DNA of 34,093 nucleotides from a virus (lineage: Duplodnaviria > Caudoviricetes). Both the position numbers and the translations under genes were made by a program. Location: IMG/VR virus record IMGVR_UViG_3300037424_001480, positions 1-34,093 of that record; one strand, 5' to 3'. Positions 9,348 to 27,126 of this stretch are shown in pieces. Every line of letters begins with the position of its first letter. Positions within the stretch are counted from its first letter, which is position 1. A model generated the notes under the pieces. The model was not told the origin of the DNA. It did no database searches and saw nothing but the letters and a program-made list of their open reading frames with translations.

Positions 9348-9777
9348 CGAGTCGACCGGATTCGATATGTCGCCTAAAAACCAGGCGACTACTCAACCGG
9401 CTTTGCAACCCCGCATGGTGAGTATTTATGAGCTGCGGGCGAAGCTGATGACGTTGATGCAGGGCTATGCGTGGGCAGAAGATGCGCTGATGGATTTGTG
9501 GAAGTTGGGCGCGCCGGACCCCTCGCCAGCTTCAATACCCTGTGGACTGGCCTTTGGCCCGCACGCCTGCGCGAAGGCCATGAACGGGCAGGCTCGCTGT
9601 GGGATTTATGGGTGTGCGCGGGAGAAACGGATTCTGCTGCCCACCCAGTTTGAGAAGTGGTGGGGAGACGTGGCGAAACGGCAGGGGTCGGAGTTCCTGG
9701 CGCGGGATATTTTGAAGCCGGGGGTTGATTCTGGTTCAACACGGAGTACACGGAGAGCACGGAGAAGGAAGAGATGA
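9319..9777 (+). CDS. Hypothetical protein
   Basis: 152 aa, Cys cluster, basic tail; overlaps both neighbours. Confidence 0.6.
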   Translation: MKKVTNQPTDESTGFDMSPKNQATTQPALQPRMVSIYELRAKLMTLMQGYAWAEDALMDLWKLGAPDPSPASIPCGLAFGPHACAKAMNGQARCGIYGCAREKRILLPTQFEKWWGDVAKRQGSEFLARDILKPGVDSGSTRSTRRARRRKR

Positions 9778-10097
9778 ATCTTTCCGCAAATCAACAAGAC
9801 GAGAAAATCAAAATCTTAGGCTACTATTACGATATGGTCGAAGATGGGGATTATGACTCCACCGGTGCGTTTGGCCGGATGAATCCAAAAATTCACAAGA
9901 TTCAGATTGCCTCGGATTTATGCCAGCAGGAAAAGGAAACGACCGTGTTGCATGAAATCATCGAATCTATCAATTACCACCTGGAATTGAAACTAGAGCA
10001 TCCAGTCATTATGAGTCTGGAGGCATCTTTGTACCAGGCCTTGACGGATAATGGAGTCAGTCTGGCTCCGTTGACGCGATTTATCAAGCCGAAATGA
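9774..10097 (+). CDS. Zincin-like (HExxH-variant) phage protein
   Basis: G......I.I..DL.Q..KETTVLHEIIESI; second His replaced by Glu. Confidence 0.6.
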   Translation: MNLSANQQDEKIKILGYYYDMVEDGDYDSTGAFGRMNPKIHKIQIASDLCQQEKETTVLHEIIESINYHLELKLEHPVIMSLEASLYQALTDNGVSLAPLTRFIKPK

Positions 10098-12184
10098 CCT
10101 TTCCGATCCCTCCTGACTTTCCGGTTGAAGATCATCCGATCTTTAAGGCGATGATTGCAGCGCGGCGACGGCTGCTGCGCCGGGACGCGGCTGCGCTCCG
10201 GGAACTGGCGGGGATGTACGAAAAGGCGTTGACCCGATTGAGGGTTGACCGGAACGCGCTGTTGAAGGTGATCCGGGAGGTGGGGCCGGATCGGAATCAG
10301 TTGATCCGGCTGGCGTCGTTCGAGAATCTAATTCAGGGTGTCCAGCGTGAGATGGGAAATCTGGCGAAGGAGATGGCCGGGAAGCTGGCTGATGAGATCG
10401 CTGTGGAACTGGCGAAGGCTGCCGAAGATGGGTTACTGCTAGTGCAGCGGGCGCTGCCGGGCCTGGAGGCGGCATACATCAAGGGTAAATGGGTGTTTTT
10501 GAACCCGGATCAAGTGACGACGATGTTCGGGTTTCTGGATACCGACGGCCCGCTGATTGCGGGAATTCGCACAAACTACGGGTCGGCCATGGCTGAGTTC
10601 GTGCGCGAGGCGATTGCGACAGGCTTCATCTCCGGCATGAACCCGCGCGATGTAGCACGGTTGATCAATGGGGCGATGGGGGAGGGGCTGCACTGGGCGA
10701 TGGTAACTGCCCGGACGGCACATTTGTGGGCGTACCGGGCGGCGAACCATCAAAGTTTCCTTAATAATTCGTGGGTGGTGCAGTCGTGGATTTGGTTTGC
10801 CCAGTTGGACGACCGCGTGTGTATGAGCTGCGTGGCCGAGCATGGGAGCGAACATCCGCTGACGGAAATTTTAGGGGATCATCACCAAGGAAGATGTATA
10901 GCTGGTGATACCATTGTCTCAGGCCCGGCGACTATGAGCCTGATATCCCGGTATTATCAGGGTGATCTCGTCATCATTCGCACTGCCAGTGGAAAGCTCC
11001 TGTCCGTCACCCCGAATCACCCAATATTGACGAGTCGCGGCTGGCTGGCTGCGGGTATCTTGCAGGCGGGAGATAATGTAATCGGCTACACTCTCGACGA
11101 GGGGGCTGCGCGTCGCATTGACCCAAACAAATATCAAGTGCCAACCCTGATCGAAGATATAGCGCGCACGCCGGGCATGCTTCGGCTTGGAAGCGTGCCA
11201 ACCACCCCCGAAGATTTCCACGGCGACGGGTGCGGCTCCGATGTCTACGTTGTATGGGCCAATCGCTTGCTGAGCGATACACTCAACGCCGCGCATAGTG
11301 AGCCAATTTTTGAGCAGGGCTTCAGTGGGGGAAACGCTGATCTCCCGCTCCTGTCGGGTTCGAGCGGCCTTGATTTGTTGAGCGAGCGGCATGGGTTTTC
11401 CCCGTATAGCGTCCTGCGCGAACTTAATCCGCCTGCGATGCTCATCGATAGGGGTTTGTTCGGCCAGCAACCGGTTGGCGTCCGTGCTGCCTCGCATGGG
11501 AACTTCCGCAGCATCTATGCGGTTCCTGATGGCTGTACGAGACACGTCGAATTGTTTGGCGAGAGAATTGGCAGAGTGCCCTTCGATGTAGAGTCTAACA
11601 ATCTCATCATCGGGCAGGCCGGCCTTCGCCCGTTGGGTGGCCCGGTTTTTTTCTCCGACAATTTGATAACGGACCGCGCGCGCGCGCAACAACCCGCGTC
11701 GCTTGAGTTCATGCGCGAGACGCTCACCGCTGGTGTGGAAAAAGGCGGCGGCCTTCTCGGCGCTCTCGCCAGTCAGATAGAGTTGGATAGCATTCTCGAA
11801 GTCAATGTCACTCACTTTAGTGGGCATGTTTATAATCTCCATAATGCGGAAGGGTGGTACAACGCCAATGGTATTGTAACACACAACTGCACACCCATGC
11901 CACATACTAAGAGTTATGCGGAGTTGGGGTTTCCGGATATCCTGGATTTAAGGCCGGTAGTCGAGAAGGGGGAGGTGTGGTTTGGGAAACAGCCGTCTGG
12001 TGTTCAACGGCTATTAATGGGGCCTGGGAAGTTGAGCGCGTGGAAGGCCGGGCAGTTCGATTTTAGTCAATTGACGGTGCCATATCAGGACCCGGTGTAT
12101 GGGAGGATGCTGAAGGAGAATTCTTTGAAAGGGATTCTCGGCGCGGACCTGGCGCAGTTGTTTTATGGAGGCAAAAAGCCGTGA
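10094..12184 (+). CDS. MuF/SPP1 gp7-like minor head protein precursor containing an intein (365 aa after splicing)
   Basis: ARTAH, W.W.AQLDDRVCMSC..EHG, and spliced junction DHHQGR|CTPMP matching the MuF H.x.x.RC..P motif. Confidence 0.9.
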   Translation: MTFPIPPDFPVEDHPIFKAMIAARRRLLRRDAAALRELAGMYEKALTRLRVDRNALLKVIREVGPDRNQLIRLASFENLIQGVQREMGNLAKEMAGKLADEIAVELAKAAEDGLLLVQRALPGLEAAYIKGKWVFLNPDQVTTMFGFLDTDGPLIAGIRTNYGSAMAEFVREAIATGFISGMNPRDVARLINGAMGEGLHWAMVTARTAHLWAYRAANHQSFLNNSWVVQSWIWFAQLDDRVCMSCVAEHGSEHPLTEILGDHHQGRCIAGDTIVSGPATMSLISRYYQGDLVIIRTASGKLLSVTPNHPILTSRGWLAAGILQAGDNVIGYTLDEGAARRIDPNKYQVPTLIEDIARTPGMLRLGSVPTTPEDFHGDGCGSDVYVVWANRLLSDTLNAAHSEPIFEQGFSGGNADLPLLSGSSGLDLLSERHGFSPYSVLRELNPPAMLIDRGLFGQQPVGVRAASHGNFRSIYAVPDGCTRHVELFGERIGRVPFDVESNNLIIGQAGLRPLGGPVFFSDNLITDRARAQQPASLEFMRETLTAGVEKGGGLLGALASQIELDSILEVNVTHFSGHVYNLHNAEGWYNANGIVTHNCTPMPHTKSYAELGFPDILDLRPVVEKGEVWFGKQPSGVQRLLMGPGKLSAWKAGQFDFSQLTVPYQDPVYGRMLKENSLKGILGADLAQLFYGGKKP
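10919..11827 (-). CDS. Putative homing endonuclease: two HTH repeats plus Vsr/DUF559-type PD-(D/E)xK nuclease, antisense inside the intein
   Basis: 302 aa; GGAG RBS before ATG 11827; HTHs AIQLYLTGESAEKAAAFF and IVRLYIEGHSANSLAKQFDVSRTAIRNRI; nuclease SPTE..L..WL...G....QQAIGPYNVDI....VAVEIFGGGWH...R..I...GWHLIFVW. Confidence 0.85.
   Translation of the reverse strand: MPTKVSDIDFENAIQLYLTGESAEKAAAFFHTSGERLAHELKRRGLLRARAVRYQIVGEKNRATQRAKAGLPDDEIVRLYIEGHSANSLAKQFDVSRTAIRNRIDAAEVPMRGSTDANRLLAEQTPIDEHRRRIKFAQDAIRGKPMPLAQQIKAARTRQEREISVSPTEALLKNWLTMRGVECIAQQAIGPYNVDIGAAPVAVEIFGGGWHASKPKHARRARYIFDQGWHLIFVWVNATRSPLVESVADYIISRLQDTRSQPAATRQYWVIRGDGQELSTGSANDDEITLIIPGYQAHSRRA
11873..11883 (-). promoter_or_regulatory. 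Putative extended -10 promoter for the antisense endonuclease
   Basis: Minus strand TGTG-T-TACAAT, 45 nt upstream of the ATG; no convincing -35. Confidence 0.45.
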
Positions 12185-12646: not shown

Positions 12647-12660
12647 TTGTTTCTGGAATT

Positions 12661-12813
12661 GCCGGGATACCACCGGCAGGCTGTCGGACGCCCCACCCCG
12701 TCCCTCCCCCTTTGCTGCTGGAGAAACGATTTCTCCGTAGAAAACGGGGAGGGGGAAGAGAAGGTAAACACACGGCCACCAAGATCATGTGATCTTGGTG
12801 GCCGTTTTTGTTT
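12661..12813 (+). promoter_or_regulatory. Structured leader/attenuator, copy A, ending in an intrinsic terminator
   Basis: 33-nt 5' block is 31/33 identical to 26972-27004; perfect stem ACGGCCACCAAGATC/GATCTTGGTGGCCGT 12772-12805 followed by TTTTGTTT. Confidence 0.75.
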
Positions 12814-12840: not shown

Positions 12841-13383
12841 ATGCACCCACTTCGCACCCAGGCCGTCAAAGGCCACACCAACCTTTTGAAAGCGGTCAAT
12901 CTGTCTGCCGATGAGATGCAGGCGTATAGCGACCGGATTCAAAAGCTGGCTAAACACGCGCCGGAGTTGACGGCGCTGTGTGATTTCACGGCCACGATCC
13001 AGGTACGGCGGCTGCTCAAGGTCCCGCCCAAGTCGTGGCAGGTGCTCGAAGTCCGCTGGTGCGGCCAGATGTTGGCGCGGATGGCTGAGTTGAAGAAAAC
13101 GACCGGCGACGCGGCCACGCTGGCATTGGTTTGCCTGGGGCATGCGAGCGATGAACTCCCGGCTGCTCTGGCTATATTGGAAAATCCGCCCCAAACTGAG
13201 GCGGAAAATCCAGTCCCTGTGACCAGCGGGAAGGCCAGATCCAAGGCCGCCCCACCCCTGGCCCCTCCCCTTTTGTCGCTAAAGCGAAAAATGGGGAGGG
13301 GGGAAGAAGACGAACTCGACCCCGAGACCGAGGCCCAGCTTGCTAAACTCAAAAAGCAAGTCGAAGCCGAGGCCGGGGCTTGA
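12841..13383 (+). CDS. Hypothetical protein upstream of scaffold
   Basis: 180 aa; contains an in-frame palindromic insert at about 13251-13301; RBS not obvious. Confidence 0.6.
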   Translation: MHPLRTQAVKGHTNLLKAVNLSADEMQAYSDRIQKLAKHAPELTALCDFTATIQVRRLLKVPPKSWQVLEVRWCGQMLARMAELKKTTGDAATLALVCLGHASDELPAALAILENPPQTEAENPVPVTSGKARSKAAPPLAPPLLSLKRKMGRGEEDELDPETEAQLAKLKKQVEAEAGA

Positions 13384-15488: not shown

Positions 15489-15552
15489 GCAGGTGTCAGG
15501 TTTTTAAGTATCAGGTGTCAGGTAGGGCTGCATGCGCTATCTGACACCTGCT
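15488..15552 (+). repeat. CAGGTGTCAG direct and inverted repeats forming an intergenic hairpin
   Basis: Direct copies at 15490 and 15512; inverted CTGACACCTG at 15541-15550. Confidence 0.7.
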
Positions 15553-15560
15553 GAGGTTGT

Positions 15561-18302
15561 ATGAGTTCGAATAACGGCCATTCTCAGCTTTTGTCATCCC
15601 CAACACCAGGAAAACGCGTGCTCTGGTATTCGAATGCGCCGTATGCGCCGACGGGATACGGGAACCAGACGGGGCTGGTGTGCGCGTATTTGCCGCAGTT
15701 TGGGCATCCGATGGCGGTGCTGGCGAATTATGGTTTGCAGGGGACAAAGCTCGAAATCGGGGGGGTGAAGATTTATCCGCAGGGGCGGGATGGGCTTTCG
15801 AATGATATCGTCCAGGCGATGGCGGACGATTGGGAAGCGGATGTGATCCTCACCCTGTATGATGCCTGGCCGTTGAATTTCAAGACGCTGCCGGGACATC
15901 ATACGCCCTGGGTCGCCTGGGTGCCAATTGACCATGAGACGGTCCAGCCGCCATTGGTTGAGAGCCTGCGGAGGGCAGACGGGGTGGTGGCTTATTCCAA
16001 ACATGGGCAGGCCGCGCTGCAAGCAGCCGGCTTCGATGCCGCGTACATCCCGCATGGGGTGGAGACGAAGACCTTCAATCCCGGCTCTCAAAATAAAGCC
16101 CGGGCGGCAATCGGCTTCCCGGAGGACGTTTTTATGGTGGGGATGGTGGCTGCCAATAAGGGCTATCCCAGCCGGAAGTGCCTCCCCGAGGCGTTGATGG
16201 CTTTCCGGCAGTTTCATGAGGAGTATCCGAATGCGCTGCTGTATTTGCATACGCGGACGGATGAAAGCAACGGGGTGGATATCGATGAAATTATTAAATC
16301 ATTGGGTCTGGAGCGAGCGGTTTTGCTCTGCGACCAGTTCCAACTTCAGTTAGGATATCCCGCCCCGTACATGGTGGACCTGTACCGGGCGTTTGATTGT
16401 TTACTAAATCCCAGCCGGGGGGAGGGTTTCGGGATTCCGATTTTGGAGAGTCTGGCATGTGGGACGCCGGTCATTGCGACTGATACCACGGCCATGAGTG
16501 AATTGGTTGGTTTCGATACGCCCGGAAAAGCACCGGGCTACTCAACCAACGGGCAATGTGGGTGGCTGGTGGAAGGGGAGCCGTTTTGGTCATCTCAGGG
16601 GGCCTGGCAGCGAGTACCGAGGGTGGATGAGATTACAAGGGCGCTGGCCGAGGCGTGCGAGATGAAGGCGTTTGCTCCTGTGGCCTGGCTGGCTTTACAA
16701 GACCGGTGTGTGGCGCGTGCCCAGGAGTATGACTTTGGCACGGTCGTGGCTCCGCTGTGGGATGCGTATTTGCGGTCGGAGGTGTGGAAGCCGGAGCTTC
16801 GACAGGCTCAGCTACCGCGCGTGAGTGTGATCACGCCGTGGAGGGATCATCCGGAGTTGATCCCGTTGTATGAGCGGGCGGTGCAGGGGGCAGATGAGGT
16901 GATTGTCGTTGATAATGGGAGCGATGGGGGCGATTTGAAAATCGCCGAACAATTGGCCGAGATGTGTCACAGGTTGGGTGCAGTGTATGTCCGGCACGAG
17001 GAAAACCATTGGTTTAGCCGGGCGTGTAATGAGGGGGCGGACAAGGCCACCGGCGATATTTTACTTTTCTTAAATAACGATATCGCTGCCCCACCGGGCT
17101 GGATTGACCAGCTGCGGAAAGAAGTGCGGCCCGGCGCGTTGTATGGGCCTTCGAAGGCGTTTGCGCCGGTGGATGGGTTCGATGTGCCTTATATTGAGGG
17201 CTGGTGTCTGGCCGTCCGGCGGGATGATTGGGAATCGCTGCAAGGCTTTGATGAGTTTGCTTATGCCCGGCCGTATTACGAAGACACCGATTTGAGTTTC
17301 CGGGCCGTTGAGGAGTGGAAATTGAGGCTAGTGGAAACGGACTGGCCGGTGATCCATTTGGGAGAAACGACGACCCGGTCTACCCCTGGCGCATTGGATA
17401 GCGCAGAGACCAACCGGGAGACGTTCCTGGCACGGGTGCGCGAGGCGCGGCAAGGCCAACCGATTTTTCGGATTCCCCGTCCGCATGTACACCAATGGCC
17501 CCCGACCGGTCTGTACGCGGGCGAGGGGATCTGCGTCCCCTGTAAAGACCCGTCCTGCAGCGCCGGTCTGATGATTGCCCAGGGCAGTCAAAAAATCATC
17601 GAAGGCTTTTTCCCGATGGCCGTGTACGGGCTCCCTCTGGATATCGAGGACGACCCGGACGGCGGCGTAGCGAAGATCATCTGTAAAGAAATTGAGCATG
17701 CCTACCGGCTGGACGAGATTGATTTCCGGCCAGGGGATGTGGTCCTGGATATCGGGGCGCATGTGGGGATTGTGAGTATTTATCTGGCGAAGAAGCATCC
17801 GGGGCTGCGGATCATTGCCTTCGAGCCGGTGAAGGAAAATTACGAACGGCTGCTGCGAAATATTCGCGCTAACGGGGTGCAAGTGGGGGCGGTCAATTGG
17901 GCACTGACCGGGGATGGTTTGCCGGTTTCTCTGGGTGGCGATCTTCATCAGAACAGTGGGGGGATGTCAATTCTGAAAGGGGATAGGAGTGCTAAGGGGG
18001 AGGGCATCCCAGTGTTTGTGAAATCCGTCACGCTGGCCGAGGCGTTTGAAATTTTTGGGGTCCAGCAGGCGAAGCTGCTGAAGATTGACTGTGAGGGGGC
18101 AGAGTATGAGGTTTTAGGGGCCATGCCGGAGCTCTTAAGCCGGGTGGAATATTTACGTGGTGAGTTTCATGATTTTCCGGGCGGGAATCCTGATGAACTG
18201 GAGGCGTTGTGCCGGCAATTTATCCCGGCTGAAAAGGTCCGGGTCAGTGTCTCCAAAATCCAGATTGACGAACCCGTTATGGAGGCGGAATATGCATATT
18301 GA
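15561..18302 (+). CDS. Tri-domain GT4 (GT-B) glycosyltransferase / GT2 (GT-A) glycosyltransferase / FkbM-family methyltransferase
   Basis: TGYGNQT, IPHGV, PSRGEGFGIPILESLACGTPVI (GT4); VSVITP, VVDNGS, LFLNND, YYEDTDL (GT2); VLDIGAHVG, AFEPV, LKIDCEGAEY (FkbM). Confidence 0.92.
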   Translation: MSSNNGHSQLLSSPTPGKRVLWYSNAPYAPTGYGNQTGLVCAYLPQFGHPMAVLANYGLQGTKLEIGGVKIYPQGRDGLSNDIVQAMADDWEADVILTLYDAWPLNFKTLPGHHTPWVAWVPIDHETVQPPLVESLRRADGVVAYSKHGQAALQAAGFDAAYIPHGVETKTFNPGSQNKARAAIGFPEDVFMVGMVAANKGYPSRKCLPEALMAFRQFHEEYPNALLYLHTRTDESNGVDIDEIIKSLGLERAVLLCDQFQLQLGYPAPYMVDLYRAFDCLLNPSRGEGFGIPILESLACGTPVIATDTTAMSELVGFDTPGKAPGYSTNGQCGWLVEGEPFWSSQGAWQRVPRVDEITRALAEACEMKAFAPVAWLALQDRCVARAQEYDFGTVVAPLWDAYLRSEVWKPELRQAQLPRVSVITPWRDHPELIPLYERAVQGADEVIVVDNGSDGGDLKIAEQLAEMCHRLGAVYVRHEENHWFSRACNEGADKATGDILLFLNNDIAAPPGWIDQLRKEVRPGALYGPSKAFAPVDGFDVPYIEGWCLAVRRDDWESLQGFDEFAYARPYYEDTDLSFRAVEEWKLRLVETDWPVIHLGETTTRSTPGALDSAETNRETFLARVREARQGQPIFRIPRPHVHQWPPTGLYAGEGICVPCKDPSCSAGLMIAQGSQKIIEGFFPMAVYGLPLDIEDDPDGGVAKIICKEIEHAYRLDEIDFRPGDVVLDIGAHVGIVSIYLAKKHPGLRIIAFEPVKENYERLLRNIRANGVQVGAVNWALTGDGLPVSLGGDLHQNSGGMSILKGDRSAKGEGIPVFVKSVTLAEAFEIFGVQQAKLLKIDCEGAEYEVLGAMPELLSRVEYLRGEFHDFPGGNPDELEALCRQFIPAEKVRVSVSKIQIDEPVMEAEYAY

Positions 18303-21692: not shown

Positions 21693-22049
21693 ATGAATAT
21701 GGAAATGGAACATGGAAAAGTTTATAAAATATGGCACAAACGGAAAGGGCCTTTCGTGGCCCAGTTTCTAGGAATCGTCGAGGGCGACGAGGTGGACCCC
21801 CAATTCATTTACGTGCGCTATGATGTGCGTGTGGGGACGGATCAGGCGCATTTATCCACCAATCCAGGTAAACAAAATGTCCGGGAGAGCAACCTGCGTC
21901 CCTCGTTGATTACAAATATCGAATTGTTTACGGACAATCACTGGCTGCGGGAACTGAAGTCTCCCGAACCGCCGATTCCCACGCCTGCTCCAGTAAAAAC
22001 CGGATTCCTGGCGCGTCTCAAGAGTGCCTTCGGGCACAAGGAGCAATAA
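21693..22049 (+). CDS. Hypothetical protein
   Basis: AGGAG RBS, ATG 21693, 118 aa. Confidence 0.6.
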   Translation: MNMEMEHGKVYKIWHKRKGPFVAQFLGIVEGDEVDPQFIYVRYDVRVGTDQAHLSTNPGKQNVRESNLRPSLITNIELFTDNHWLRELKSPEPPIPTPAPVKTGFLARLKSAFGHKEQ

Positions 22050-22050
22050 T

Positions 22051-23307
22051 ATGGCAGATTGGCCCCCGAAAAAGAACTCAGCCTTTACGGCCACCTACCC
22101 GATCTACGACAACGATGGGGATTTGGTGACCGGCGCAGCCGCGCTGGACAGCGAGGTCAGTAAAGATGGCGGGACGTTCACCGATGCCACGAATGAGGCC
22201 GGTGAGATCGCTACTTCGAGCGGCATCTATACTCTGGCGCTCACCGCGACGGAGATGAACGCCGACATCGTGGCGACGATCACGAAGACCACTACCACGG
22301 ACGCCAAGACCGCCGTAAACGTGATGTACACGGCGACGCGGCAACTACTGGATCTGGCCTACCCTACGGTCAGTGGGCGCAGCATGGATGTGGATGCCTC
22401 TGGCGGGGTGGAAGTCGGCTCACACCAGGCTGGCGCAATAACCTCCGCTGCATTTGCGGCCGGGGCGATTGACGCGGCCGCGATTGCTACCGGCGCAATA
22501 GACGCCGACGCACTGGCGGCTGACGCCCTCACCGAAATCCGATCACTGGTGTCAGGAACGGCGGACAGTGGTTCCACGACCACGATGGTAGATGCCGCCC
22601 GCACGGAGGCCGATACCGATTATTGGAAAGGGAAATGGGTTTTGTTTACCAGTGGTTCGATTGCCAACCAGGTGCGGTTGATTACCGCCTTCGACCCGGC
22701 GACCGACACGTCCACCTTTGCCCCGGCGACGACCCAGGCCGTGAGCACGAATACCTATGAAATCCTGCCTGCTGCGGCAATGGATTTGCGGCTATGGCTT
22801 GGCTCTGCGCCGAACGCGCTGCAATCCGGGCGAGTGGACAGCTATTTAGGCGCGACGGCTGCGGCGGTCATCGCGGCGGCCTCGTTTGCGGCCGGGGCCA
22901 TTGACGCCAATGCCATCGGCACGGGTGCGATTGACGCCGATGCGATTGCAGCGGCAGCGATCACGGCGGCCAAATTTGCCGCCGGCGCGATTGATGCGTC
23001 GGCCATTGCAACCGGGGCGATTGATGCCGATGCGATTGCGGCGAATGCGATTGGCGCGTCCGAACTGGCCGCCGACGCCGCCCTCGAAATTGCGGATGCG
23101 ATTTTGCAACGCGACATGGATCAGGTCGAGGCGGCTGCCCCGGTACATAGCCTGGTCGTCGCCATCCTGAAAGCGGTTTCGCGCATCCGGGATAACGCCG
23201 GAACGCTGGAAGTCTACCAGACGAACGGCACGACGTTGAAGATGAGCCAGACGGTGACGACCGATGCAGCCCTCAATCCGGTAGATGAGCTCTCAGCAGG
23301 CAGTTAA
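22051..23307 (+). CDS. Ala-rich repeat virion protein
   Basis: AAGGAG RBS; SEVSKDGG N-domain; tandem AAGAIDAxAI / ATGAIDADAI decamers. Confidence 0.75.
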   Translation: MADWPPKKNSAFTATYPIYDNDGDLVTGAAALDSEVSKDGGTFTDATNEAGEIATSSGIYTLALTATEMNADIVATITKTTTTDAKTAVNVMYTATRQLLDLAYPTVSGRSMDVDASGGVEVGSHQAGAITSAAFAAGAIDAAAIATGAIDADALAADALTEIRSLVSGTADSGSTTTMVDAARTEADTDYWKGKWVLFTSGSIANQVRLITAFDPATDTSTFAPATTQAVSTNTYEILPAAAMDLRLWLGSAPNALQSGRVDSYLGATAAAVIAAASFAAGAIDANAIGTGAIDADAIAAAAITAAKFAAGAIDASAIATGAIDADAIAANAIGASELAADAALEIADAILQRDMDQVEAAAPVHSLVVAILKAVSRIRDNAGTLEVYQTNGTTLKMSQTVTTDAALNPVDELSAGS

Positions 23308-24062: not shown

Positions 24063-24668
24063 ATGGCAGACATTCGAGCAGGCATGGAAGAGATTTTGCT
24101 GCGGCTGCGCCAGGTGGGAGAGGCCGGGACGGCGGATTATTCCGTCGCAGGGAAAACATACTGGCACTCCGTCGATCTGCAATCCCAGGCCGACCGGCAC
24201 CGGCAGTATTTCCACGCGGTGAATCTGGTCCCTGAACCCCAACAGATCGGGGTGACGACATATTACTATCGCTACCGGTTTCCGGCGGGGTTCAAACCTG
24301 ATGCGCACGCGGTGGAAGGCACGGCGGGGGGGACGGCGGCTTTTCGGGTGGATGATTCGACCGGGGCGTTGATCTCCGGGACACTGTACACGTTCAACGC
24401 GGATGCGTTTGATCTGGTTTTCACAAATGATCAGGCCGGGAGTGCCCGGTATTGGACCGGATTTGCGTATGATTTGAATGACATCGCGTACGATCTTTGG
24501 CGTACCAAAGCCGGGCACGTCTGGACGGCGATCAACTTCAGTGCGGATGGGCACCGGTTTGATCGGGCGGGGCTGCATGCCAACTGCCTGCGGATGGCTG
24601 AGATGTTCGCCCAGGCGCAGGGCGTGAAGACGACGCGGATGGTACGGTCAGACGTGGCGTCAGGTTGA
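24063..24668 (+). CDS. Head-tail adaptor (putative)
   Basis: LRLRQVG, YDLNDIAYDLWRTKA, FSADG..F.R; position before neck genes. Confidence 0.7.
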   Translation: MADIRAGMEEILLRLRQVGEAGTADYSVAGKTYWHSVDLQSQADRHRQYFHAVNLVPEPQQIGVTTYYYRYRFPAGFKPDAHAVEGTAGGTAAFRVDDSTGALISGTLYTFNADAFDLVFTNDQAGSARYWTGFAYDLNDIAYDLWRTKAGHVWTAINFSADGHRFDRAGLHANCLRMAEMFAQAQGVKTTRMVRSDVASG

Positions 24669-24678
24669 GAGGTGTCAG

Positions 24679-25050
24679 GTGTCAGGTTTGTTGAGTGATG
24701 CAGAACTAACTGAAATCCGGGATTTCGTGGAGGAGAATGCGTTGCCTTCGACGTGTACGATCCAGACGCCGACGGAGACCAATACGAAGGGCAGCGTCGT
24801 GACTACGTATGCGAACACGTACACGGCTGTACCCTGCCGGATCATGCCGATCCGGGGTGAAGGCCGGGAGTATGTGACCGGGGAGAAGATAACCCGGCGG
24901 GCGACGTACATCGGGACATTTCCGTTCGATCAGGCTCTGGATGCGACGTACCGTGTGGTGGCTGGCGGCGATACCTACCAGGTGCTTCAAGTTTGGGATG
25001 ATCACGATTTTCGGACGGCGCGCCGGGCTGATCTGGCGAAGGTGGCGTGA
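24679..25050 (+). CDS. Head closure protein (SPP1 gp16-like)
   Basis: CTIQ......G......VPCRI...RVV.GG.TYQV pattern. Confidence 0.75.
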   Translation: MSGLLSDAELTEIRDFVEENALPSTCTIQTPTETNTKGSVVTTYANTYTAVPCRIMPIRGEGREYVTGEKITRRATYIGTFPFDQALDATYRVVAGGDTYQVLQVWDDHDFRTARRADLAKVA

Positions 25051-25053
25051 GGA

Positions 25054-25105
25054 GGTGTCAGGTGATCTGTTTCAGGTGTCAGGTGATCCAGTGTCAGATG
25101 TCAGG
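25054..25105 (+). repeat. Degenerate GGTGTCA heptamer repeat cluster
   Basis: AGGTGTCAGGTGATC twice plus GTGTCAG and ATGTCAG in the intergenic space. Confidence 0.7.
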
Positions 25106-25116
25106 AAGAAGGTGAG

Positions 25117-26971: not shown

Positions 26972-27126
26972 GCCGGCATACCACCGGCGGGCTGTCGGAC
27001 GCCCTACCGGGGTTGAGTACAACCCTGCCCTCCCCATTTGCGGCTGAAGCCGAAAACAGGGAGGGGAGAAGAAGGCAAACACACGGCCATAAGGATCAAT
27101 TTTGATTCTTGTGGCCGTTTCATTTT
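26972..27126 (+). promoter_or_regulatory. Structured leader/attenuator, copy B, ending in an intrinsic terminator
   Basis: Homologous to 12661-12813; stem 27083-27118 followed by TTCATTTT. Confidence 0.75.

Follow-up and report, generated by a model that had tools for sequence, protein, structure and literature searches.

What does a phage intein gain, and what must it keep, when the opposite strand of its own codons reads as a nuclease? The question is raised by the MuF-like minor head protein gene of a tailed phage (Duplodnaviria; Caudoviricetes), IMG/VR record IMGVR_UViG_3300037424_001480, whose positions 1 to 34,093 were analyzed over their full length of 34,093 nucleotides and are called the window below. 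The original prediction, made from the letters alone, saw an intein in this gene with an intact homing endonuclease gene on its antisense strand and took the sense strand of the insert for filler. The double coding proved to be real and conserved, but the insert is not filler throughout, and the layout had already been described. We consider it likely that the MuF intein splices itself and likely that it homes, by means of a predicted Vsr-like endonuclease whose separate gene lies on the other strand, in exact codon register with the intein. The locus consists of three features:

10094..12184, plus strand: MuF-like minor head protein gene (Pfam PF04233, E 3.6e-7; assignment also from PHROG head protein matches and from the neighbours)
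10895..11887, plus strand: contiguous intein of 331 aa, from C1 to a final HN that is followed by Cys+1, placed after the conserved MuF His-x-x-Gly-Arg
10919..11827, minus strand: antisense gene of 302 aa, with two helix-turn-helix (HTH) units (about 7-43 and 73-106), a helical linker and a Vsr-like nuclease domain (about 163-282)

Over the window a structural region of a tailed phage was recognized, with genes for endolysin, terminase, portal, MuF, scaffold, capsid and tape measure; MuF shares its head module with terminase, portal, scaffold and capsid. The MuF open reading frame (ORF) encodes a 696-aa precursor, predicted to give 365 aa if spliced; in Pfam it matched Phage_Mu_F above the cut-off and Intein_splicing weakly, below the cut-off (E 4.6e-5). 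Class 1 inteins have Cys or Ser at position 1, TxxH in block B, a penultimate His, a terminal Asn and Cys, Ser or Thr at +1. All these residues are present in the translation of 10895-11887, which shows C1, TPNH (39-42), VYNL (312-315) and the terminal H330 and N331, followed by Cys+1, and so confirms the in-frame 331-aa MuF intein with all splicing blocks that had been claimed. C1, T39, H42 and N331 were unchanged in 45 of 45 aligned rows; two rows had been cut too far upstream. A HINT fold was found in the structure model, its domain formed by about residues 1-67 and 292-331. Upstream, a small gene of the plus strand (9774-10097) overlaps the MuF start; it carries an HExxE-like motif (LHEIIE) and matches phrog_1233, a group of unknown function.

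With tblastn, 120 phage records were found to contain the intein and 126 the antisense protein, and the MuF genes concerned were largely the same. Scans of stored sequence contributed 5, 80, 80 and 45 loci, where 80 is in one case the best of 587 confirmed stretches and in the other the best of 524; with three named phages and the window the collection comprised 213 loci, partly redundant. Both intein ends could be parsed in 153 of these (60 were dropped because of contig ends or unmatched motifs), and 114 loci were left below 80% intein identity. Across the loci, the intein sits in MuF at a site of His-Pro-x/Cys-x-Cys type or at the His-x-x-Gly-Arg variant of it.

The minus strand reads through 302 codons with no internal stop, from the ATG at 11827 to a stop at 10921-10919, on intein codon 9. 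The same frame is stop-free further upstream, where ATGs in this frame occur at 11842 and at 11905, the latter giving 328 aa; the antisense gene thus lies wholly inside the intein, as had been stated, for the starts at 11827 and 11842, but the open frame extends to an ATG outside. The intein residues EDFHGDG (106-112) share their codons with antisense residues 206-200, read PVAVEIF from 200 to 206, and the predicted codon-to-codon register of the two strands is exact. Given the codon usage of the exteins, the probability that the minus frame of the window intein stays open is about 5e-4. It was open in 102 of 102 non-redundant loci against 4.9 expected, in a set that had been collected by means of the antisense protein. 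The search did not select on the host frame, which was open across the nuclease match in all 213 loci; the other four frames were open in none. Within the match, the nuclease frame had no stop in 166 loci and one stop in 47; among the matches listed the single stops were mostly the terminal one, and breaks were flagged for L038, L053, L203 and L212. From block F to intein residue 21 the antisense frame was open in 105 of the 114 parsed loci, the outcome that the original prediction had asked of homologues. Codons that would place a stop in the sense frame were absent from the nuclease gene (0 against 463.6 expected).

An open frame may be kept without its amino-acid sequence being kept. A conservation test was performed on 102 of the 114 loci, comparing in each column the conservation of a residue with that forced by the other frame. 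The z-values of this test ignore shared ancestry, and the loci had been found through the nuclease, which favours nuclease conservation. Three stretches of the intein behaved differently:

11003..11095, both strands: intein residues 37-67 including block B (T39, N41, H42), on nuclease codons 275-245 (YxVIxGDG region)
11096..11272, both strands: intein residues 68-126 (I86, E87, EDFHGDG 106-112), opposite the nuclease active-site region
11273..11764, plus strand: intein residues 127-290, open and unconserved sense filler, largely disordered in the model

Among the 31 columns of residues 37-67, 10 were conserved specifically for the intein and 9 for the nuclease, so that both frames are constrained; block B residues T39, N41 and H42 sit on the conserved nuclease residues G273, I271 and V270. 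Both frames are likewise constrained over residues 68-126 (9 intein-specific and 19 nuclease-specific columns of 58), which lie opposite nuclease residues Q186, N193, D195, E204, G207, G208, W210, H211 and R220. EDFHGDG is kept in the sense frame: F108 was observed at a frequency of 0.96 where 0.33 was expected, and D111 at 0.98 where 0.37 was expected. Residues 127-290 gave no intein-specific column and 18 nuclease-specific ones among 114 scored, and residues 312-331 gave 11 and 1, respectively, of 20. Thirteen independent close pairs agreed with this per-column pattern. In the intein model, pLDDT (predicted local distance difference test) values were below 50 for residues 164-267 and about 60-88 for 81-130, a stretch conserved in the sense frame.

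Over intein residues 37-112, selection therefore maintains the sequences of both proteins, and over 127-290 that of the nuclease alone. The description of the sense insert as mere filler suits 127-290 and fails for 37-112, where block B and EDFHGDG are constrained. Similarly, about 900 bp had been placed under dual-strand constraint: the sense frame is open throughout, but both sequences are kept over 37-112 only, and over 127-290 selection favours the minus frame, as had been anticipated. This is among the clearest natural cases of two opposite-strand proteins with measurable selection on both, catalytic motif lying over catalytic motif.

The antisense product was modelled with a mean pLDDT of 90.1, and its fold matched Vsr and HTH structures: the C-terminal part matched Vsr (1CW0) and the N-terminal part was helical. 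Pfam gave HTH_28 (E 2.8e-7), and MTES_1575 was matched by 37 of 42 aligned nuclease domains, the window's own not among them. The two HTH repeats and the Vsr-type nuclease proposed for the minus strand are thereby supported. Compared as a single sequence with the PDB sequences, the antisense protein gave nothing meaningful, and profiles were required; no NUMOD family was among its Pfam matches, the Pfam and fold matches being to HTH units. By profile alignment to 3R3P and 1VSR, residues E169, D195, E204 and H211 are the equivalents of Glu170, Asp196, a conserved Glu and His213 of I-Bth0305I, and these four predicted active-site residues were invariant in 42 of 42 aligned domains. The sequence EIFG had been read as a caveat on activity. 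Judged from the alignment, it is the norm of the family, standard across the homologues, and its reading as decay was rejected, but the final Asp of the EDxHD signature is absent. The nuclease appears to resemble the EDxHD enzymes, and because this one defining residue fails it was kept outside that family.

How such a gene could be expressed is suggested by three further features of the minus strand, all located within the codons of the C-terminal splicing blocks:

11825..11827, minus strand: likely start codon ATG, reverse complement of intein block F His311
11837..11840, minus strand: Shine-Dalgarno-like GGAG, 9 nt before the ATG, on the intein Leu315/His316 codons
11873..11881, minus strand: probable extended -10 box, TG-n-TACAAT, on the block G Ile-Val-Thr codons

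Control inteins were collected with a pattern for inteins of different F-G spacing (113 loci, 100 non-redundant); 89 were kept after dropping 8 with a nuclease match and 3 with long open antisense frames. The start-codon position is a His in 93 of 114 loci (ATG in 70, GTG in 23), and CAT was used in 70 where 39.0 were expected. For the Leu of VYNL the codon CTC was used in 91 of 109 loci, where extein usage predicts 28.4; this choice places GGAG or GAGG 9 nt upstream of the start; in control inteins the same codon gave 5 of 57 against 5.7. A Shine-Dalgarno match of at least 4 nt was present in 102 of 114 loci (66.7 expected). The block G codons end in the bases needed for TATAAT or TACAAT (z 9 to 20), and a -10-like hexamer was found in 64 of 114 loci against 13.7 +/- 3.2 expected, compared with 30 of 89 against 29.4 in the controls and 3 of 28 against 4.4 in GC-matched controls. 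The synonymous bias was absent in the 89 controls (z -0.3, -2.3, 0.0 and -0.3), and both signals occurred in 6 of the 8 nuclease-match loci that had been dropped from them (0.7 expected). The start codon, the Shine-Dalgarno sequence and a probable -10 of the nuclease gene are thus probably written in the codons of blocks F and G, and its transcription would start near 11866. The predicted 5' leader had no unusual RNA fold (z -0.23), which leaves a translation-blocking hairpin as in Dassa et al. (PMC2677866) unsupported. In three of the control inteins (L218, L237 and L251) the antisense frame is open from block F for 343, 243 and 166 codons, respectively; none of the three matched the nuclease profile, and they may carry another antisense gene.

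The family is widespread. Its closest relatives to the window occur in Anaerolineae genomes (52-55% identity), other members in phages of Salmonella, Pseudomonas, Klebsiella and Vibrio, and it was estimated at about 750 stored stretches in viral and about 950 in metagenome collections. The records of phages Malisha, Vivi2 and Aaphi23 annotate the sense gene only. MuF inteins of Gordonia phages matched with E down to 2e-32, and Gordonia MuF genes matched both strands. Intein-free relatives were found as well: a single-protein search for close MuF relatives found none, and with codon patterns 147 matches were obtained, of which 143 are MuF-like and lack the intein, that is, empty alleles of the same site. 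One of these, L329, whose insertion point falls between locus positions 1218 and 1219, is 85% identical to the window N-extein. On a 95-row N-extein tree (135 columns), the 14 intein-bearing rows need 10 changes, a distribution that fits repeated gain or loss. Contigs of four DNA runs showed no joint skipping the intein; contigs drop rare variants, so this is no proof of absence.

Two variations were noted within the family. In a few loci, such as L014 and L018, the intein starts with Ala rather than Cys; the parser counted 8 such loci among 114, some perhaps mis-parsed, and these inteins may follow another splicing route. The MuF genes of Gordonia phages Affeca, Angelicage, Keitabear and Sedona (L473 included) matched the window intein, and those of Affeca and Angelicage also the antisense Vsr-like protein; the preprint of Gosselin, Arsenault and Gogarten (bioRxiv 10.1101/2025.01.02.630785) names all four phages under endonuclease VII-like inteins, which may reflect a second intein or differing labels.

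Taken together, these results suggest the following course of events. The head-operon mRNA would be translated into the 696-aa precursor, from which the HINT domain, as its complete class 1 motifs and its fold imply, would excise 331 aa and join the 365-aa MuF. A counter-transcript would begin at the extended -10 in the block G codons, and translation from the Shine-Dalgarno sequence and ATG in the block F codons would give the 302-aa HTH-HTH-linker-nuclease. MuF alleles without the intein would be cut by this protein close to the His-x-x-Gly-Arg/Cys site and would acquire the intein through repair; we infer the homing step because of what is known of the family and of the patchy distribution. 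Selection keeps the sense frame stop-free throughout. Timing may explain the layout: a host-type promoter of its own would free the nuclease from the late schedule of a structural gene.

Several observations weigh against this account, some touching homing and others expression. The equivalent of the final Asp (D222 in I-Bth0305I, D97 in Vsr) is His217 in the window, as mapped by sequence profile and not by superposed coordinates, and none of the 93 parsed homologues has Asp there, while 88 of the 93 have a second His in the D222 loop; mutation of D222 abolishes cleavage by I-Bth0305I (PMC3239194). The intein label on the tree is more clustered than when shuffled (10 against 13.2 changes; 5 of 500 shuffles as low), and the well supported branches force 5 of the 10 changes. 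Recent homing, which would leave near-identical inteins in distant exteins, was not seen in 13 independent pairs among 109 distinct inteins, and the one pair above 90% intein identity had exteins 99% identical. As for expression, a -35/-10 scan found no promoter at the block G place and no -35 (1 site elsewhere, 1.2 by chance), and a good -10 is wanting in 50 of 114 loci. The z-values in general, which treat related loci as independent and ignore shared ancestry, are inflated.

The observations on homing would also suit an antisense gene that is real and expressed and no longer homes, its product being a DNA-binding or nicking protein (acting, for example, in head-operon repression or recombination) and the intein being inherited mostly vertically. 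The absent Asp, the divergent active-site loop of Vivi2 (EVHRSAQH), the lack of a recent-transfer pair and the vertical-looking inheritance of most VSR-like groups in the preprint are in its favour. We consider it unlikely, as none of the four predicted active-site residues varies among the aligned domains, the gene, among the matches listed, always accompanies an intein at one MuF site, and intein-bearing alleles are scattered among intein-free ones.

The observations on expression would be expected if the nuclease were read from signals elsewhere and the codon bias in blocks F and G were inherited from one ancestor: all loci share an ancestry that the statistics ignore, no -35 box was found, and either His codon gives ATG or GTG in reverse. 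This seems to us quite improbable. The loci are less than 80% identical in the intein (the nearest to the window 46%) and span 42-74% GC. At synonymous positions nearby the bias is small or weaker (z -0.5 for the block G His codon, 1.2 for the block F Tyr codon, 4-6 for the others), compared with 14-20 at the signal positions; moreover, the -10 occurs in two different codon registers and therefore points to selection for the hexamer. A third reading, in which codon bias opens a mere shadow ORF opposite a sense insert that is the real domain, is hardly credible: antisense frames are often open codon-to-codon in GC-rich DNA, and in 3 of 100 control inteins the antisense frame was open over 166-343 codons with no nuclease match, but the small chance of an open frame (about 5e-4), the confident antisense model with its Vsr/HTH match and the antisense-only conservation over 127-290, opposite a sense middle disordered in the model, largely refute it.

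The N-terminal splicing region is short. In 101 of 114 loci the block B His is residue 42 or 43, and in 13 control inteins it stands at 62-100. A tentative proposal, which we regard as possible and rather doubtful, is that some 20-25 residues after block A are missing and that the conserved residues 79-125 (VPTLIED...EDFHGDG) supply them from behind block B. Intein and nuclease would then be two folded enzymes locked on opposite strands of the same 230 bp, with blocks F and G doubling as nuclease promoter, ribosome site and start codon. If true, an intein in a late structural gene could make its endonuclease on a separate schedule. A profile of intein residues 76-128 found no match in 57 control intein hosts, and so gave the relocated segment no sequence support; sequential structure alignment spans about 107 residues, the size of the two intein ends, and cannot test the idea.

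Other features of the window were noted. An element of about 145 nt occurs twice, 14.3 kb apart, at 12660-12804 before the scaffold region and at 26972-27125 before the tape measure gene, with a partial third copy at 13262-13300; it forms several hairpins with conserved stems and differing loops (fold z -6.2 and -4.7), and at its end a terminator-like hairpin is found with a T run. It had no Rfam match at the gathering score and is possibly a phage regulatory RNA or a repeated promoter/terminator cassette. Directly after the capsid genes, a 913-aa gene (15561-18302, plus strand) fuses a family 1 and a family 2 glycosyltransferase with an FkbM methyltransferase, perhaps for glycosylation of the virion or host surface. 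CAGGTGT-type repeat units in three short intergenic stretches (15490-15525, 24654-24689 and 25073-25108) are possible operator or spacer repeats. Imperfect 45/90-nt repeats (22420-23076, plus strand) lie in the ORF 22024-23307, an Ala-rich virion protein gene.

The claim that this layout was undescribed as a class was not sustained: the preprint already reports full inteins with 'anti-sense VSR-like' homing endonucleases in actinobacteriophages, with matches to 1CW0 and 3R3P; they form part of a set of 63 non-canonical inteins from four host types, one of them minor capsid, and all the minor capsid inteins of the preprint have non-canonical endonucleases. The layout is published and common, and the window copy is not a discovery of kind. 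Because Gordonia phage MuF genes match both strands here, the window intein very likely belongs to the same class as the preprint's anti-sense VSR-like inteins, which also combine a full intein with an antisense nuclease ORF; it would probably correspond row by row to members of the preprint's VSR clusters. Differences lie in the host range, far wider in the window family than actinobacteriophages, and in the position of the second ORF, which in the preprint is typically outside the splicing domain and in the window family covers block B and starts on block F. The preprint's main text uses none of the words 'promoter', 'ribosome binding' and 'start codon', and constraint on both frames over block B and EDFHGDG was not found there either. 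Literature titles and abstract openings, subscription journals and preprint supplements aside, described no expression signals in intein blocks. With the start codon, Shine-Dalgarno sequence and -10 mapped and with the close intein-free L329, the preprint's questions, whether the antisense nuclease is expressed and whether it drives homing, become directly testable.

With I-Bth0305I (PMC3239194) and the fractured-gene endonucleases of split inteins (PMC2677866), the window nuclease shares a C-terminal Vsr-like fold behind N-terminal DNA-binding modules, and with the EDxHD/Vsr-like homing endonucleases the conserved Glu, Asp, Glu and His. It differs from I-Bth0305I in having what appear to be HTH units instead of NUMOD repeats and no D222 equivalent, and from its EDxHD kin, found in an intron or between split-intein halves, in lying on the other strand of a contiguous intein. 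A mobility gene in a second frame, under purifying selection and with the host frame open, is also known from a +2-frame LAGLIDADG in the cyanobacterial dnaX intein (bioRxiv 10.64898/2026.09.14.751524), from antisense LAGLIDADG inteins cited in the Gosselin preprint and from the out-of-frame HNH insert of ShiLan (PMC11855218). These belong to other nuclease families; those of dnaX and ShiLan are on the same strand as their host gene, and ShiLan has no splicing domain.
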